Assembly: GCA_944372485.1 (NCBI GenBank)
Contig: CALVZI010000009.1
Coordinates: 1 to 45,923 of the forward strand
Reading direction: 5' to 3'
From: an uncultured Bacilli bacterium
GTDB lineage: Bacteria; Bacillota_I; Bacilli_A; RF39; UBA660
Length of the DNA: 45,923 nt
Position 1 is the stretch's first letter. Every line of letters begins with the position of its first letter. Below the pieces are notes generated by a model. That model had not been told where the DNA came from. It searched no databases and saw nothing but the letters and a program-made list of their open reading frames with translations. Positions 975 to 36,032 of this stretch are shown in pieces. The position numbers were made by a program, and so were the translations under genes.

Positions 975-1703
975 TTATTTAATTAATTTTTTAATTCTAT
1001 TTTTAGTTTTTATAATACATTCATCAATAGTTGTATTATTATGGTTTAATAATTCTTCATAAAATATATTATTATCTTCTTTTAAATAAACTTTTTTTTC
1101 AGTAGAAATAATTCGTTTATTATTTTCAAATTCATTCATCTTATCTTTTGAAATATATTGTAAATGATTAATAGAAAGAAATGGAATTATATATAAACCG
1201 TTAATTTCTTCATCATAAGATTCATCATATCCAATGAATATATATATTGGCTTATTTAATAATTGTTGATTTGTTTCAGCAATATATGAATTAATTATAT
1301 GTATATTTTCGTATCTTATACAGTTTATTAATTGTCGTAATGTTAGTTCATATTTTAAAGAACTTATATTTATTTCTAAATAGTCTAATAAAATTTTTTC
1401 ATATAGTTCATCGTAATATTTTAAAAAGTTCAAATAAGTAGAATCTATATTAAAAGAAATAATAACATCATCACGTTTCATATTTTTTATTAAATTTTTT
1501 TCTGTTATTGTATTAAAAATGTTTTTCTTTATTTTATTTAGTCTTTTTTCAATTTTATTTTGATTTCTATAAATTTGTAATAATTTTTCTTCATTAATTT
1601 TATTTATATTAAGTAAAGTGGTAGTATATTTAAGATAGCTTAACTGTAATTTTTTTATTTTTTTTAATTCACTGATTAATTCATTTAAGACCATAATATT
1701 CAC
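975..1703 (-). CDS. hypothetical protein (242 aa), no recognisable motif
   Basis: Uninterrupted ORF with strong RBS (AAGGAG-N8-ATG on the reverse strand); Lys/Asn/Ile-rich with a helical-looking N-terminus. Confidence 0.6.
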   Translation of the reverse strand: MNIMVLNELISELKKIKKLQLSYLKYTTTLLNINKINEEKLLQIYRNQNKIEKRLNKIKKNIFNTITEKNLIKNMKRDDVIISFNIDSTYLNFLKYYDELYEKILLDYLEINISSLKYELTLRQLINCIRYENIHIINSYIAETNQQLLNKPIYIFIGYDESYDEEINGLYIIPFLSINHLQYISKDKMNEFENNKRIISTEKKVYLKEDNNIFYEELLNHNNTTIDECIIKTKNRIKKLIK

Positions 1704-1789
1704 TCCTTATCTATTTTTATTTTATTATTATTTATTTAATAAGTAAAATATATATTTGTTATGTTAATTATAAATATTAGTTATTATAA

Positions 1790-1821
1790 AAAACAACTTA
1801 TTAATTTATTTAAGTTGTTTT
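1790..1821 (-). terminator. rho-independent terminator at the natural end of the HD gene frame
   Basis: Perfect 11-bp stem AAAACAACTTA / TAAGTTGTTTT (1790-1800 / 1811-1821) with a 10-nt loop; U-rich on the minus-strand RNA (GUUGUUUUUUAUAAU) and also T-rich on the plus side. Confidence 0.55.
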
Positions 1822-1984
1822 ATTTTTTTTTTATTTTATTTTTTATTACATAATTAGATACTGCTTTAAAATTATCATCATATGGGTAAGTTCTTTGACC
1901 AAATTTTAACCACATAGTTGACCATGACTCACCATCTTCAAGTAATTCTTTTACAATAGGGTTATTTAAAGTATTATTTCCATT

Positions 1985-2455
1985 TTAATTATTTAAGTCA
2001 ACACAATTTTCTTCATCATATAATTTACACTGAAGATCACATTCTAATTTGTCACATTGATAAGCAAATAATGCTTCTTTAGTTTTTCTTTCATCAAATT
2101 CTAAAAATAATTGTTCAATATGTTTACCATCTAATAAATTATTTAATATTTTATGAACTGCTTCATGTTCAATTTTTTCTTTTTCAGTTTTAGATATTTC
2201 AAATTGCGTTAAATCACCAATAACTGCTTCACCAAGTTCGTGAATAGCTAACATATAAATAACTTTTTTTATGTCAATATCATATTCATATTCTGAATAC
2301 ATAGCAATCGCAAGCATTTGAACTCCAAATATGTGTTCAGCAACACTTTCAATTCTTTCTTTTTTTACATTCCAGTTTTTCCAACCAGTTCTAATAACAT
2401 TTTTAAGTTTATTACATACTAAATAAAATTCTATAACATTTTGTTCTTTAGACAT
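1985..2455 (-). CDS. HD-domain phosphohydrolase, YfbR/HDDC2 (HD_3)-like 5'-deoxynucleotidase; apparently truncated by an in-frame TAA (see finding)
   Basis: RTGW...ESVAEHIFGVQMLA...LAIHELGEAVIGDLT carries the H...HD...D metal-binding pattern of this family. The frame continues open for 54 more codons after the stop, down to 1820. Confidence 0.8.
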   Translation of the reverse strand: MSKEQNVIEFYLVCNKLKNVIRTGWKNWNVKKERIESVAEHIFGVQMLAIAMYSEYEYDIDIKKVIYMLAIHELGEAVIGDLTQFEISKTEKEKIEHEAVHKILNNLLDGKHIEQLFLEFDERKTKEALFAYQCDKLECDLQCKLYDEENCVDLNN

Positions 2456-2492
2456 AAAATGGCCACGTTTCTTTTGTTTATAATAATAAATA

Positions 2493-3395
2493 TTATTTTA
2501 AAATTTTATTTTCTTCTAGTTGTATTTTCAATTCATAATCATTATAAATATTTTCTATAATATTTTGTAAGATATTATTACGATTATTATTGTTTTTTGA
2601 TAAATCTAGTTTAAATAGATTTACAGCATTTTCAAAATTGTTACAATTAACATTGTGTATTAAATTATTAATGATATCTTTTTGTTGGCTATATGGCAAA
2701 GTAGAGAAGTTTGTTGAATAAATTTGAGCAAGCATATAACCAGAATCAATTGCTTTTTCATTAAAATTTCTATAATTATTAATACTATAAATAGAGTTTA
2801 TTCTTTTAAAGAAAGTAGATATTCTACGATTTAATATATCTTCTTGTAATATTTTTTTATCAATGTTATATTTTAATAATTGTTCATCAGTTAAATTAAG
2901 TAAATAGGAATCTAATAAACGTTCCATTGATTGAGCACAAGTTTCAGTTAAAACTCTTCTTGTTTCTAAATTATTATTTTTAGAGTCAAAAAGATGAGTA
3001 AACTCATGAGAAATTGTGTATAAATCACGTAAGTCACCATATTTGGTTAATTCAAGTTTTCTAGTGTCAGCATTTGCTTTAGGATTATCTCCAAATGTAA
3101 TATTATTTTGATCATGCATACGCATTTTAAAATAATTTGTGAAATCTACATTTATTTCATTAAAAAAATTTGTTGCAATCTCGATAGTATCATTAAAGTT
3201 TAGTTTGGTTTTTAAAGGGTACATTTCTTTTTTAGAAATATATTCTTGAGTTATATTATTTACGTTAATATTATTATTTAATTCGTTATAAAAGTTACTA
3301 ATAATAGCAGAGAAGTTATTAGCCAAAGAAAGATCATCATAATAAAATTCTAATATATCATCTCTTTTTTTATTTATAATATCATTATTATTCAT
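2493..3395 (-). CDS. small HExxH zinc metallopeptidase, M3 (oligoendopeptidase F)-like catalytic core only
   Basis: TISHEFTHLFD followed about 20 aa later by LTETCAQSMERLL, resembling the M3 HExxH...aEvAStfnE arrangement; 300 aa, no signal peptide. Confidence 0.55.
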   Translation of the reverse strand: MNNNDIINKKRDDILEFYYDDLSLANNFSAIISNFYNELNNNINVNNITQEYISKKEMYPLKTKLNFNDTIEIATNFFNEINVDFTNYFKMRMHDQNNITFGDNPKANADTRKLELTKYGDLRDLYTISHEFTHLFDSKNNNLETRRVLTETCAQSMERLLDSYLLNLTDEQLLKYNIDKKILQEDILNRRISTFFKRINSIYSINNYRNFNEKAIDSGYMLAQIYSTNFSTLPYSQQKDIINNLIHNVNCNNFENAVNLFKLDLSKNNNNRNNILQNIIENIYNDYELKIQLEENKILK

Positions 3396-3440
3396 TGAAC
3401 ATCATCCTTTTTTTAATTATATAATAAAATCATTTTTTTA

Positions 3441-3468
3441 ACAATAAAAAACTTACAAAAGTAAGCTT
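3441..3468 (-). terminator. rho-independent terminator of the 272-aa HD gene
   Basis: Minus-strand RNA AAGCUUAC-UUUU-GUAAGUUU followed by UUUUAUUGUU; the hairpin abuts the stop codon at 3467. Confidence 0.5.
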
Positions 3469-4276
3469 ATTTATTTAAAGTTAATTGTTTTTGTTTATCT
3501 ATATAATCAATTATTTTTTGCTTAATCTCTTCTATAGATAAAACTGTATCTAATTTTATATATACTGCATATATTAATTCATCAAAAGTCATGTATTCAT
3601 TATATTTTTTTATTTCATTGAAAATAAACATTAAATTTTCTTCTGAAGTATTAATTTCATTTATTTCAATAAATTTTTGTTTAAATAAATCTTTATTTTT
3701 AACTAATTTAGTACATTCATTAATAAAATTCTCAAAGTCTTTATCTTTAAAATATACTTTTTTTATAGCATATCCATTTTTACTGTATTTTTTATTAATA
3801 TGATTTCTTGCATCTTCAATTATTTCATCTAATGTATCATTTGGATTATTTGCAAGTCGATATGTAAAAGTTCTTTTTATTGTTTTATTTAAACTCATAC
3901 TACGATCAGCAGTTGAAACAATTTTTCCATATATACTTCTAGGTTCAGTTTTTAAACTAGCACGATGATCAGCAACGGCTTCTTTCATTATAATTATTTC
4001 ATCATCAGTAAAGAATATTTTTAAATTTTTATCCTGTTCTAATATTTCAGATGATATTTTTTCATGATTTTTGGCGTCAATATAATGTCCTATATCGTGA
4101 TAACTAGCAATGGTATAGACCATATTATAATTAATATTTGGGACTTCTTTTGCAAACATTAAACTTCTATTAATAACATATTTAATATGTTCTAAATTAT
4201 GTCCAGTATCATTTTTTTGATATGATGTAAAAATATTTTGTTCAATATATTTTTTTAATTCGTTATTAATGTTCAT
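3467..4276 (-). CDS. HD-domain metal-dependent phosphohydrolase (YpgQ/YedJ-like) with C-terminal extension
   Basis: HNLEHIKYV...ASYHDIGHYID...ADHRAS...STADRS is an HD superfamily motif set. ATG at 4276 (MNINNELKKY) is better spaced from GGATGTGA than the GTG at 4285. Confidence 0.75.
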   Translation of the reverse strand: MNINNELKKYIEQNIFTSYQKNDTGHNLEHIKYVINRSLMFAKEVPNINYNMVYTIASYHDIGHYIDAKNHEKISSEILEQDKNLKIFFTDDEIIIMKEAVADHRASLKTEPRSIYGKIVSTADRSMSLNKTIKRTFTYRLANNPNDTLDEIIEDARNHINKKYSKNGYAIKKVYFKDKDFENFINECTKLVKNKDLFKQKFIEINEINTSEENLMFIFNEIKKYNEYMTFDELIYAVYIKLDTVLSIEEIKQKIIDYIDKQKQLTLNK

Positions 4277-32958: not shown

Positions 32959-33025
32959 TTTTTTTTTGATAAAAAAAAGGAAATAGAAAAGTTTTAGAGT
33001 ATATAACTAATGAGGGGGTGAAAAA

Positions 33026-35107
33026 GTGTTTAAACATTTTCCTTTTATAAAACAATTAAATGAAAAAGATTGTGGTGTATGCTCATTAGCTATGATAATA
33101 AAATATTATGGTGGTAATTATACTTTAAATGAACTTAGAAAATTAACTAATACTAATAATCATGGCACAACAGCTTATCATTTAATTGAAGCAAGTAAAA
33201 GAATTGGTTTTACTGCAAAAGGAATAAAATGTAAATTTGATGATTTAAATAAAGATAACTTTGTACTACCATGTATTGCTCATTTAAAATATGAAAGTAG
33301 TGGTCATTATATCGTTATATATAAAGTCGATTTTAAAAAAAAGACAATTGTTATAGCTGATCCAGCTAGTAAAATTAAAACAATAATTTTTGATGATTTT
33401 ATAAAAGATTGGAATGAAGTATTAATATTCTTATATCCTATAACAAAACTTGAAATACATAAAAATACGCCAATATATAAAATTATATTTAGTTTATTTA
33501 AACAAAATAAAAAATTATTAATAAATATAATTATATTATCATTATTAATAACACTGTCAAACATTATCACTTCCTTCTATTTAAAGACAATTGTTGAATC
33601 ATTAAAGCAATATTATTTTTTACAAAACTTAATATTAATTTCTCTGTTTTTTGGAACTTTTTATGTATTTAAAAATATAACTTTATATTATCGAAATATT
33701 GTTATTATTTATTTAAATCAAAAAATAGACTTAACATTAGTAATAGATGTTATTAAACACTTAATTCATCTTCCTTATCTTTATTATCACAACCATACTA
33801 CTGGTGATGTTATTCAAAGAATCAGTGATGCAATGACAATAAAAAATTCTTTTACTAATATTTTAATTTTTATTACAACTGATTTAATATTATTTTTATC
33901 TTCTTTATTATTAATAATTTTTATTAATGAAAAATTAACTTTAATACTACTAATTTATATTTTTATTTATTTTTGTTTATATTTATTATTTAAAAATATT
34001 ATTGTAACAACACTAAATAATTGTAAACAAGAAGAAGCACATCTAAACACTTCACTAACAGAATCTTTAATTGGTATTAATAGTATTAAAGGATTACACT
34101 TAGAAACTAATTTTGATAATAAGTTAGAAACTAATTTAATTAATTATTCATTAAAACAAAAAGGATTAGGGAAGATATTAAATTTAAGAAGTTTAATTTA
34201 TAATTTATTAAAAGATATAAACTTTATAATATTTATAAGTTTTATTATGTATTTAATAGTTCAAAAAGAATTAAGTACAAATAGTATCCTCATTATTCAA
34301 AGTTTGTTATTTAATATAATGAATAGTTTAGATAGTTTTACTAATTTAGATGTTGAACTTAGTAATTTAAAATTATCTTTACAAAGATTAATTGATTTAC
34401 AAGAAGAGAAATTAAAAGATGGTGTAATTAATAAATTATATTTAAAAGAGATTAATATTAAGAAATTATCTTATAGTAATGATAAGAATGTTCAAGTATT
34501 AAAAGATATAACGCTAAATATTAAGAAAGGAGAAAAGATAGTACTTGTTGGAACAAGTGGTAGTGGAAAGAGTACACTTTTAAAACTATGTTCTAATTTT
34601 TATATTAGTAAGCGGGATAAAATATTTTTTAATGATTTTGATTACTTAGATTATAGTGATAAAGCACGTAAAAAAAATATTACGTATTTATCTCAAGATG
34701 AATATTTATTTACGGGAACGATACTAAATAATATAATTATGAATCGAAGTTATGATGAATTAATATTAAAAAAAGTAATAAAAATATGTAAAATAGATTT
34801 AATTGTAAAAGATAAGAATTTGGGACTTAATACTTTAATTGAAGAAGGTGGAGTAAATTTATCAGGAGGAGAAAAGAATAGAATAATACTTGCCCGGTAT
34901 CTTTTAAAAGCGACAAATTATATTTTTATAGATGAAGGATTAAGTCAAATAGATATAAATATGGAAAGACAAATATTAAAAGATATGTTTAAGTATTTTA
35001 GGGATAAGACATTTGTAATAGTATCACATCGCTTAGATAATTTAGATTTATTTGATCGAATGATTAAATTAAAAGAAGGACAAGTTATTTTAGATGTATC
35101 AAAATAG
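33026..35107 (+). CDS. bacteriocin/double-glycine peptide ABC exporter with N-terminal C39 peptidase domain (ComA/LagD/LcnC type)
   Basis: C39 domain has QLNEKDCGVCSLAMIIKYYGG (catalytic Cys), SGHYIVIYK (His) and IADP (Asp). Six TM segments. Walker A GTSGSGKST, signature LSGGEKNRIILAR, Walker B IFIDEGLSQID, H-loop VSHR. GTG start after GAGGGGGTG. Confidence 0.9.
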   Translation: MFKHFPFIKQLNEKDCGVCSLAMIIKYYGGNYTLNELRKLTNTNNHGTTAYHLIEASKRIGFTAKGIKCKFDDLNKDNFVLPCIAHLKYESSGHYIVIYKVDFKKKTIVIADPASKIKTIIFDDFIKDWNEVLIFLYPITKLEIHKNTPIYKIIFSLFKQNKKLLINIIILSLLITLSNIITSFYLKTIVESLKQYYFLQNLILISLFFGTFYVFKNITLYYRNIVIIYLNQKIDLTLVIDVIKHLIHLPYLYYHNHTTGDVIQRISDAMTIKNSFTNILIFITTDLILFLSSLLLIIFINEKLTLILLIYIFIYFCLYLLFKNIIVTTLNNCKQEEAHLNTSLTESLIGINSIKGLHLETNFDNKLETNLINYSLKQKGLGKILNLRSLIYNLLKDINFIIFISFIMYLIVQKELSTNSILIIQSLLFNIMNSLDSFTNLDVELSNLKLSLQRLIDLQEEKLKDGVINKLYLKEINIKKLSYSNDKNVQVLKDITLNIKKGEKIVLVGTSGSGKSTLLKLCSNFYISKRDKIFFNDFDYLDYSDKARKKNITYLSQDEYLFTGTILNNIIMNRSYDELILKKVIKICKIDLIVKDKNLGLNTLIEEGGVNLSGGEKNRIILARYLLKATNYIFIDEGLSQIDINMERQILKDMFKYFRDKTFVIVSHRLDNLDLFDRMIKLKEGQVILDVSK

Positions 35108-35546
35108 AACTTATATAATAAATCAAAAATTACCTAAAATGATTTATTTTATTATTTTTATATCACTCTTTACTTTAATATTTGTTTTAATTTTTATTAT
35201 TATTCCTATAAAAAGAATAATTTCATTCGATGGTTTTGTTGTGTTAGAAGATAATAGATATTATATTAAAATATATGTTGGTGATGAAGATCTAAAAAAG
35301 ATTAATTGCCATAATGTTATAGTAGATGAAAAAAAGACAAAGTTAGATTATTTTACTATTAAAGAAGCTTATAAAGTAGATAATAGTTTAGAAATTTATC
35401 ACGAAGTTTTTTTAAAAATTGAAATTCCAAAAGAAAAAAGAGTTGAAAATTATAAACTTGAAGTAATGTTTATTCAACCAAAAACGACATACTTAAAAGA
35501 AATAATTAATTATGTGAAACGGGGGTTATATGAAGGAATTAACTAA
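35094..35546 (+). CDS. single-pass membrane accessory protein of the exporter (miniature HlyD-like?)
   Basis: Overlaps the exporter stop by 14 nt. N-terminal TM IYFIIFISLFTLIFVLIFIIIPI then about 110 external residues. The ends resemble HlyD beta-domain blocks, but the assignment is tentative. Confidence 0.6.
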   Translation: MYQNRTYIINQKLPKMIYFIIFISLFTLIFVLIFIIIPIKRIISFDGFVVLEDNRYYIKIYVGDEDLKKINCHNVIVDEKKTKLDYFTIKEAYKVDNSLEIYHEVFLKIEIPKEKRVENYKLEVMFIQPKTTYLKEIINYVKRGLYEGIN

Positions 35547-35670
35547 AAATGAATTATTAGATATCGAAGGTGGTTCTCTTAGTCTAGGAGCTTGTTTAGC
35601 TATTGGGGCTGGAATAGTATTTCTACTTGGAGTTATAGATGGCTTGGTTAGGCCTTTGGAATGCAGGTAA
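35530..35670 (+). CDS. double-glycine-leader peptide 1 (bacteriocin precursor candidate, 46 aa; not in the ORF track)
   Basis: MKELTKNELLDIEGG / SLSLGACLAIGAGIVFLLGVIDGLVRPLECR. The leader fits L-12 E-8 L-7 I-4 G-2 G-1. RBS ACGGGGG. Overlaps the accessory gene end by 17 nt. Confidence 0.75.
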   Translation: MKELTKNELLDIEGGSLSLGACLAIGAGIVFLLGVIDGLVRPLECR

Positions 35671-35673
35671 GAT

Positions 35674-35841
35674 ATGAAAGTATTAAAAGATGAAGAACTA
35701 TTTAATATTGTAGGTGGCTCTATAAGTGCCAGTATGATAAATTATTTAGTAAGAGGAATAGAAGCTATTTTTGAATTAGGGCAAAGTTTTGGAACAGCCA
35801 TCAGAAGAGCTAAAGAAAATAAAATATGTCCCTTAGAATAA
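35674..35841 (+). CDS. double-glycine-leader peptide 2 (bacteriocin precursor candidate, 55 aa; not in the ORF track)
   Basis: MKVLKDEELFNIVGG / SISASMINYLVRGIEAIFELGQSFGTAIRRAKENKICPLE. Same leader pattern. RBS AGGTAAG. Starts 3 nt after the peptide 1 stop. Confidence 0.75.
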   Translation: MKVLKDEELFNIVGGSISASMINYLVRGIEAIFELGQSFGTAIRRAKENKICPLE

Positions 35842-35963
35842 AAAATTATATTATAAAAATATTAATATTTATAATAACATTATCACTACTAGGATATGTT
35901 ATAAATTTCATTTTTAATATTGGAGTAATATTAGGAACTTATCTTCGTTATATAATGAATTAA
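35826..35963 (+). CDS. 45-aa hydrophobic peptide, candidate bacteriocin immunity protein (not in the ORF track)
   Basis: MSLRIKNYIIKILIFIITLSLLGYVINFIFNIGVILGTYLRYIMN. Overlaps peptide gene 2 by 16 nt and ends at the operon terminator; weak RBS. Confidence 0.4.
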   Translation: MSLRIKNYIIKILIFIITLSLLGYVINFIFNIGVILGTYLRYIMN

Positions 35964-35986
35964 AGCAATTTTTATTGCTTTTTTTC
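35962..35986 (+). terminator. rho-independent terminator of the bacteriocin operon
   Basis: AAAGCAAT-TTTT-ATTGCTTT followed by a T-run. Confidence 0.65.
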
Positions 35987-35994
35987 TTTACAAC

Positions 35995-36008
35995 CGAAAC
36001 TTTGTTCG
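35995..36008 (+). promoter_or_regulatory. LexA operator (Cheo/SOS box) of dinB
   Basis: CGAAACTTTGTTCG matches CGAAC-N4-GTTCG at 9 of 10 defined positions and abuts TATAAT 36010-36015. Confidence 0.65.
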
Positions 36009-36032
36009 TTATAATATATATAAGGTGGTTAG

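Follow-up and report, generated by a model that had tools for sequence, protein, structure and literature searches.

What does a membrane protein of 150 amino acids (aa) do when its gene directly follows that of a peptide-cleaving exporter? The question is posed by a contig from an uncultured Bacilli bacterium of the order RF39 (CALVZI010000009.1; the whole analysed stretch of 45,923 nucleotides is referred to here as the window), in which a C39 peptidase-containing ATP-binding cassette (ABC) exporter, or peptidase-containing ABC transporter (PCAT), is followed by a small gene encoding a protein with a single transmembrane (TM) helix. The original prediction, made from the letters of the window, proposed that this protein stands in for a much larger HlyD-type accessory protein and is either a minimal adaptor that lacks a coiled coil or a new, unrelated accessory factor. 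The analysis presented here supports that interpretation, and neither of the two results named beforehand as speaking against it (an ectodomain devoid of beta-domains resembling those of membrane-fusion proteins (MFPs), or homologs separated from C39 exporters) was obtained. The small protein probably serves the C39-ABC exporter as a dedicated partner and resembles in its build the transporter-proximal core of HlyD and other MFPs, with a short cytoplasmic tail, a TM helix, a single small beta-barrel, and a helix at the C-terminus.

The exporter and the small gene behind it

33026-35107, + strand: complete C39 peptidase-containing ABC exporter (PCAT) of 693 aa, identified by Pfam and NCBIfam matches
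35094-35546, + strand: single-pass membrane protein of 150 aa and candidate minimal adaptor, supported by an ATG start in the list of open reading frames (ORFs), by the family alignment A1, and by an AlphaFold model with a predicted local distance difference test score (pLDDT) of 85.4

The exporter matches Peptidase_C39 (E 1.2e-35), ABC_membrane (9.6e-26), and ABC_tran (6.4e-22) in Pfam, as well as two NCBIfam models, TIGR01193 (1.9e-113) and NF045998 (the Mbov_0121 family of peptidase domain-containing ABC transporters; 4.7e-76), in both cases under the cut-off of the model. It is the sole C39 match in its genome, an assembly of 1.18 Mb in 98 contigs that is 91% complete. The start of the 150-aa ORF overlaps the exporter stop (35107) by 14 nt, its end overlaps the first of two double-glycine (GG) leader peptide genes (start 35530) by 17 nt, and the gene is translationally coupled to the exporter gene. 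The start at 35094 is supported because the N-terminal 15 residues align with those of homologs. The encoded protein has a basic N-terminal tail of 14 residues preceding the TM helix, a hydrophobic run (IYFIIFISLFTLIFVLIFIIIPI) at residues 17-39 with ~110 residues after it, and a single cysteine. Every detail of the original prediction that could be checked at this level (the 150-aa gene, the 14-nt overlap with the exporter, the one TM helix, and the ~110 external residues) proved correct. A scan of the AT-rich DNA of the window for promoters and terminators returned 35 sites versus 37.5 expected, and zero terminators.

The premise that a HlyD-type partner of ~450 aa is to be expected here was worded too strongly, since such a partner is common but not obligatory: the PCATs of Gram-positive bacteria act alone or with one accessory protein (PMC7018657). 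Within a sample of 201 genomes of the order (0.6-1.6 Mb), none contains a match over cut-off to TIGR01000, the model for the canonical ~450-aa accessory, which is also absent from the genome of the window. Small accessories of another kind are known for class II bacteriocin exporters, namely the PedC/BrcD proteins (~175 aa, disulfide isomerases), an example of which (175 aa, with a CPHC motif) is encoded in a Lactobacillus sakei plasmid locus. The PedC/BrcD family has a thioredoxin fold. In contrast, the window protein has one cysteine and hence no CxxC motif, an all-beta ectodomain, and no NCBIfam match; a PedC/BrcD identity is rejected for the absent CxxC motif and the wrong fold.

A conserved protein family

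The 150-aa gene is real and conserved. A word-indexed search recovers 20 proteins at 94-100% identity and one at 60%, all 150 aa long, whereas phmmer, run exhaustively against 1.8 billion cluster representatives, recovers 53 clusters (at 50% identity; E <=0.001) whose members are all 132-162 aa long and align from end to end. The word-indexed profile search added almost no members, and the matches of a single-protein locus search were confined to the same species. The members share a short N-terminal tail, one TM helix, and a glycine a few residues past it, followed by the motif YY.K.Y and an acidic turn, the motifs Y.I..IS..Y and Y.EV.L, a nearly invariant N119, and a KTT motif that precedes an amphipathic C-terminal stretch. 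Conservation of length and architecture across the family rules out a chance ORF. Codon differences from a 95%-identical relative (7 synonymous and 8 non-synonymous in 151 codons), although few, would fit mild purifying selection. No significant match in Pfam or NCBIfam was obtained for the window protein itself, and as no model in these collections reaches the family, its genes bear the label "hypothetical protein" in hundreds of uncultured gut genomes.

Linkage to the exporter across the order

The C39 domain occurs in 195 of the 201 genomes of the order, mostly as one copy, and the A1 profile finds the small protein in 92 of the 201, representing 53 of the 99 genera. In 28 of the 29 family loci that score best in other genomes of the order, the nucleotide-binding domain of an exporter ends directly upstream of the small gene; the 29th (L014) contains an exporter fragment only. 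The exporter linkage of homologs, put forward in the original prediction as a check, therefore holds in 28 of 29 loci of the order, and likewise in the five Mycoplasma genomes described below.

The region downstream of the exporter was inspected in 19 profile-negative genomes and contains six divergent copies of the gene, two remnants, and one ambiguous case, while in about ten genomes the exporter is followed by the peptide genes with nothing in between. The divergent copies encode single-TM proteins of 133-161 aa in the same slot and are recognized by the A1 hidden Markov model (HMM) with per-sequence P values of 4e-10 to 2e-7. The remnants (L047, 2110-2223; L054, 2186-2311) are ORFs of 37 and 41 aa in the accessory slot that comprise the N-terminal tail and TM helix only, give weak A1 HMM matches, and look like decay intermediates. 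The gene is thus widespread and tied to the exporter wherever it is present, and it has been lost repeatedly while the exporter and the peptides stayed. Because several genera keep exporter and peptides without it, the gene can be regarded as helpful to export rather than essential, in agreement with PCATs that work alone or with one accessory (PMC7018657).

A sister family in Mycoplasma

The A1 consensus has a full-length match (E 8.6e-4) to the NCBIfam model NF045999 (MAG1140 family protein), and 21 of the 55 A1 members match it weakly (best E 2.1e-4); the window protein itself gives no match to this equivalog model. When A1 is compared by hhalign with an alignment of 30 Mycoplasma members, the probability is 95.4% and the E-value 1.9e-8. 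With the ectodomains only, the score is 26.9 versus a mean of 8.8 for column shuffles (standard deviation 1.7, maximum 14.2), none of 100 of which reach it, and reversed-profile controls give P values of 0.2-0.27. Judged by these profile comparisons, the window family is a distant sister of the MAG1140 family.

Of the 68 genomes of one Mycoplasma-type family, 45 contain NF045999; the genes encode single-TM proteins of 125-150 aa and contain in-frame TGA codons, read here as tryptophan (genetic code 4). In each of the five Mycoplasma genomes examined, the gene starts 2-6 nt past the end of an exporter that matches NF045998 over its cut-off (672-726 bits), so that both families consist of small single-TM proteins encoded directly behind a C39-ABC exporter. 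The two differ in that the window protein gives no match to NF045999 and that the pair in the window is followed by two GG-leader genes, whereas no GG-leader peptide gene was seen by eye in ~1.3 kb downstream of the Mycoplasma pair, where no motif search was run. The hosts differ as well, as those of the window family are walled and use the standard code, whereas Mycoplasma lacks a cell wall; that the organism of the window is walled follows from its genome encoding MurE. The constant neighbor common to both deep lineages is the exporter gene, and because it is the only one that they have in common, a role as transport partner is favored over one as immunity protein.

Some further observations concern these loci and genomes. 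The exporter/MAG1140 pair occupies a fixed place upstream of YbeY-like, cytidine deaminase (cdd)-like, and Era-like genes (assigned by eye; L066-L095), and the cargo is not obvious from the locus. Contig C84 of genome G000 (1.18 Mb) carries two tandem full-length murE-like genes (1495-4246, - strand; 470 and 463 bits to TIGR01085). Literature searches found no functional study of MAG1140 (NF045999) or Mbov_0121, and none was found by combining RF39 with bacteriocin or Mycoplasma with double-glycine.

A probable relationship to membrane-fusion proteins

The top Pfam match of the A1 consensus is HlyD_3 (PF13437), with an E-value of 0.012 when the full-length consensus is used and 0.0052 with its ectodomain, and residues 54-116 are aligned with positions 30-97 of the 106 in the profile. 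Two individual members of the family also match HlyD_3. Proteins of any kind with this domain occur in four of the 201 genomes of the order, and the HlyD_3 scan of these genomes did not detect the accessory genes.

Since canonical HlyD accessories, which were sought in the class and the phylum for a comparison profile, were not found there, clostridial proteins referred to here as mini-HlyDs were taken instead. On the megaplasmid of Clostridium acetobutylicum (NC_015686), an unrelated PCAT is followed by a 172-aa protein (WP_010890759.1; L057, 6203-6721) that matches the C-terminal barrel of HlyD models (TIGR01843, E 1.3e-17; TIGR01000, 6.1e-10). All 35 relatives of this protein carry PF26002 (Beta-barrel_AprE) and nothing else, and a mini-HlyD of the 172-aa type in Clostridium puniceum is likewise encoded directly behind a C39-ABC exporter. 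By the measure of such model matches, coil-less mini-HlyD partners of PCATs exist and are recognizable. WP_010890759.1 is labeled a hypothetical protein, an annotation that understates a coil-less HlyD barrel protein.

By hhalign, A1 and the mini-HlyDs align collinearly across 124 columns that begin at the TM helix and extend to the C-terminal one (P 4e-4). The alignment pairs IS..Y..D.N..Y with vSdDV.vD..SgkkYY and KTT with ykTSYF, and thereby reproduces the likeness to HlyD that the original prediction had seen by eye in the strand after the TM helix and in the C-terminus. For the ectodomains only, the score of 25.7 is reached by none of 100 column shuffles (mean 11.4, standard deviation 2.1, maximum 18.1), and reversed controls give P values of ~0.2. 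The window family and the clostridial mini-HlyDs share a TM helix, one barrel, a C-terminal helix, the lack of a coiled coil, and the position directly behind a C39-ABC exporter, as well as the order of secondary-structure elements and overlapping Foldseek targets in the PDB. They differ in that the mini-HlyDs have significant matches to HlyD models, an extra beta-hairpin, and a longer cytoplasmic tail, none of which is found in the window family. Compared with HlyD and the LcnD/ComB/BlpB proteins (TIGR01000, ~450 aa), the window protein is likewise membrane-anchored and encoded next to a PCAT, and its post-TM strand and C-terminal barrel blocks can be aligned with theirs; however, it has one third of their length, lacks the lipoyl domain and the hairpin, and does not match TIGR01000.

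Predicted structure

35136-35201, + strand: TM helix, residues 15-36, a DSSP helix in the AlphaFold model (pLDDT 83-96)
35217-35474, + strand: extracytoplasmic small beta-barrel, residues 42-127, from the AlphaFold secondary structure
35490-35540, + strand: C-terminal helix, residues 133-149, after the conserved KTT, predicted by AlphaFold and aligned with the C-terminus of the mini-HlyDs (ykTSYFnYIL)

In the AlphaFold2 model computed on A1 (mean pLDDT 85.4), the TM helix is followed by a small beta-barrel, which includes one short helix, and then by the C-terminal helix. The barrel is made up of strands 42-52 and 55-63, helix 64-70, and strands 74-77, 80-83, 86-94, 101-108, and 121-127. The model contains no coiled-coil hairpin, the only helices of the ectodomain being the one of seven residues and the C-terminal one, which bears out the expectation that a protein of this size leaves no room for a coiled coil. 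There is also no lipoyl (barrel-sandwich) domain, as strand 42-52 runs directly into strand 55-63.

Foldseek searches of the PDB with this model return, among their high-probability matches, five MFPs (MexA, 6ta5_D, and BesA, 4kkt, both 0.87; Spr0693, 5xu0, 0.82; CusB, 3ow7, 0.80; EmrA, 4tko) with probabilities of 0.7-0.9, E-values of 0.1-0.4, and structural similarity scores (TMq) of 0.27-0.35 over 82-98 columns. As a positive control, a model of a sequence-verified mini-HlyD (pLDDT 80.9), in which the elements follow one another in the same order and one hairpin is added, returns BesA, Spr0693, MacA, 7sgr_C, EmrA, ZneB, AcrA, and MexA with E-values of 1e-3 to 1e-1 and TMq of 0.32-0.41, together with barrels of Upf1, HerA, and FNR. 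Among these targets, 7sgr_C (HlyD of the HlyB/D complex, 166 residues) aligns with the control model over 158 columns. Because the E-values of the control are themselves no better than this, even a true member of the group can be said to score modestly. The window model finds the same kind of targets as the control with similar TM-scores and E-values ~100-fold weaker. On the strength of these models, the window protein would belong to the same fold class as the mini-HlyDs, with homology being probable; the MFP-like ectodomain for which the original prediction had suggested looking thus takes the form of a predicted small beta-barrel whose MFP targets are shared with the mini-HlyD control. A profile search of PDB sequences found nothing significant, the best match being the resistance-nodulation-division pump CmeB (E 0.44).

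Alternative explanations

A number of results weigh against an adaptor derived from MFPs. The window protein reaches none of the HlyD/MFP family models at their curated thresholds, and of the features of such proteins it has the N-terminal membrane anchor and the gene adjoining that of a partner transporter. The HlyD_3 score of the A1 consensus (17-18 bits) lies below the cut-off of 22.2, and its match to NF045999 has 19.5 bits versus a cut-off of 35. The hhalign probability for A1 and the mini-HlyDs is 30-35%. A weak HlyD_3 match of similar strength (E 0.0026) was obtained for an unrelated 173-aa protein of a relative that by eye resembles TasA/camelysin. Matches as weak as this may thus be spurious in such AT-rich genomes, and the Pfam match of the window family therefore proves nothing when taken alone. 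No precomputed match to PF26002, which was not in the Pfam library used for the profile search, is recorded for the family members listed in the searches. The window model has no Foldseek match in the PDB at E <=0.001 (its E-values are 0.06-0.4), and barrels of the Sen1/SETX helicases and Upf1-like ones rank level with the MFPs. Finally, the empty slot in about ten of the 19 profile-negative genomes means that the gene is not essential for export.

Most of these results would be accommodated if the protein were a genuine accessory of the exporter that is unrelated to HlyD and the MFPs, a lineage-specific invention whose likeness to their barrel is due to convergence or to a generic fold. We consider this explanation unlikely, although it deserves more weight than the other alternatives. 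Three independent weak signals (the top Pfam match, the hhalign score ~7 standard deviations above the shuffles, and the shared PDB targets) converge on one family that was specified a priori, the alignment keeps its collinearity all the way between the TM helix and the C-terminal helix, and the position of the gene behind the exporter is that of bona fide mini-HlyDs.

A second possibility is that the protein provides immunity, that is, self-protection against the two exported peptides, and has no role in transport. Class II immunity proteins are often small TM proteins, and the window protein is likewise small, resides in the membrane, and is encoded in a bacteriocin-like operon by a gene that overlaps that of the first peptide. 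The explanation is nevertheless improbable, given that the Mycoplasma sister is encoded behind an exporter with no GG-leader gene seen by eye directly downstream, that about ten related genomes keep both peptides in the absence of the 150-aa gene, that the end of the operon, where an immunity gene would usually lie, holds a different small TM ORF, and that the predicted fold resembles transporter adaptors. That the protein is a functionless, decaying remnant of a full-length HlyD gene, as the 37-41-aa remnants in two relatives and the loss of the gene in several genera might suggest, is highly improbable in view of the length and architecture kept in 53 clusters, in at least 53 genera and in Mycoplasma, the conserved motifs of its own (the glycine after the TM helix, N119, and KTT), and the confidently predicted fold.

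Proposed function

The explanation favored here, a dedicated exporter partner built like the transporter-proximal MFP core, implies that the window protein descends from the MFP beta-barrel or is a very distant relative of it. We read the HlyD chain in 7SGR as comprising the TM helix and the membrane-proximal barrel of HlyD; if this reading is right, the part of an MFP that contacts the transporter is exactly what the small proteins retain. The TM helix of the 150-aa protein would pack against the membrane domain of the exporter, and the barrel would sit on the outer face of the exporter, in the manner of the resolved part of HlyD on HlyB. From there it could stabilize the assembly of the exporter or assist the release of the two hydrophobic GG-leader peptides, while the duct-forming hairpin would be unnecessary in cells that have no outer membrane. 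The protein would then improve export without being indispensable to it.

A bolder possibility is that a TM helix plus one barrel is the minimal working core of an MFP, as represented jointly by the window family, the MAG1140 family, and the clostridial mini-HlyDs, and is enough for a PCAT in single-membrane bacteria. The operon, with its exporter in 195 of the 201 genomes and its strongly conserved pair of single-cysteine peptides, would then serve a lineage-wide, quasi-housekeeping form of peptide export and would not be an ordinary bacteriocin locus; we regard this as speculative and rather doubtful.

Peptide-cleaving ABC exporters with a membrane-anchored partner are in themselves known already, and the NF045999 and PF26002-only mini families are present in databases, although the literature search found no functional study of either. 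None of the curated models reaches the window family. What accessory proteins do for Gram-positive peptide exporters is poorly understood, and to our knowledge there is no solved structure of a PCAT with an accessory protein from a single-membrane bacterium. A conserved natural version with an anchor and one barrel marks the part that is needed to work with the exporter, and its small size makes it a tractable target for co-folding, cryo-electron microscopy, and secretion assays.

Probable cargo peptides and surroundings of the operon

35530-35670, + strand: GG-leader peptide A, 46 aa, probable cargo, matching TIGR03949 (E 2.4e-5; 24 bits versus a cut-off of 21.5)
35674-35841, + strand: GG-leader peptide B, 55 aa, probable cargo, with the leader MKVLKDEELFNIVGG and weak bacteriocin_sig and ComC matches
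35826-35963, + strand: hydrophobic ORF of 45 aa at the end of the operon, the usual position of an immunity gene, from the ORF list

Peptide A belongs, above cut-off, to the class IIb lactobin A/cerein 7B family described by TIGR03949 and has a conserved counterpart in at least 31 of 48 related loci; counterparts of peptide B are also conserved in related loci. The 45-aa ORF has no Pfam or NCBIfam family match, and similar ORFs in some related loci (L037, L038, L049, and L053) contain a motif like G.Y.G..LRY. Both peptides (35530-35841 in the window; L003-L054) are unusually conserved throughout the order, and each has a single cysteine near its C-terminus; peptide A ends in ...F[LI]IGVIDG[YF].RPLKC[NR], and peptide B contains ...IN......LG[RQ]S.G.A.RR....C... 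Near-universal, slowly evolving bacteriocins of this kind are atypical in reduced genomes, and the peptides may have a non-antagonistic role.

In the window (32959-36032), the operon sits between an rsmD-like methyltransferase gene and dinB. In most relatives (L035-L054), its place is directly upstream of rpsU (S21)-like and GatB/YqeY-like genes (by eye), and these different flanks indicate that the whole cassette has moved in the lineage of the window. In some relatives (L063, 1393-1914, - strand; L046, 2419-4330), a gene for a secreted protein that by eye resembles TasA/camelysin adjoins the rpsU-like gene beside the operon, joined in L046 by one for a SipW-like signal peptidase (by eye). 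The TasA/camelysin-like protein is the one that gave the spurious weak HlyD_3 match. Five loci (L042, L044, L047, L051, and L052) have ORFs after the rpsU- and yqeY-like genes that by eye resemble the sporulation-associated YqfC and YqfD.

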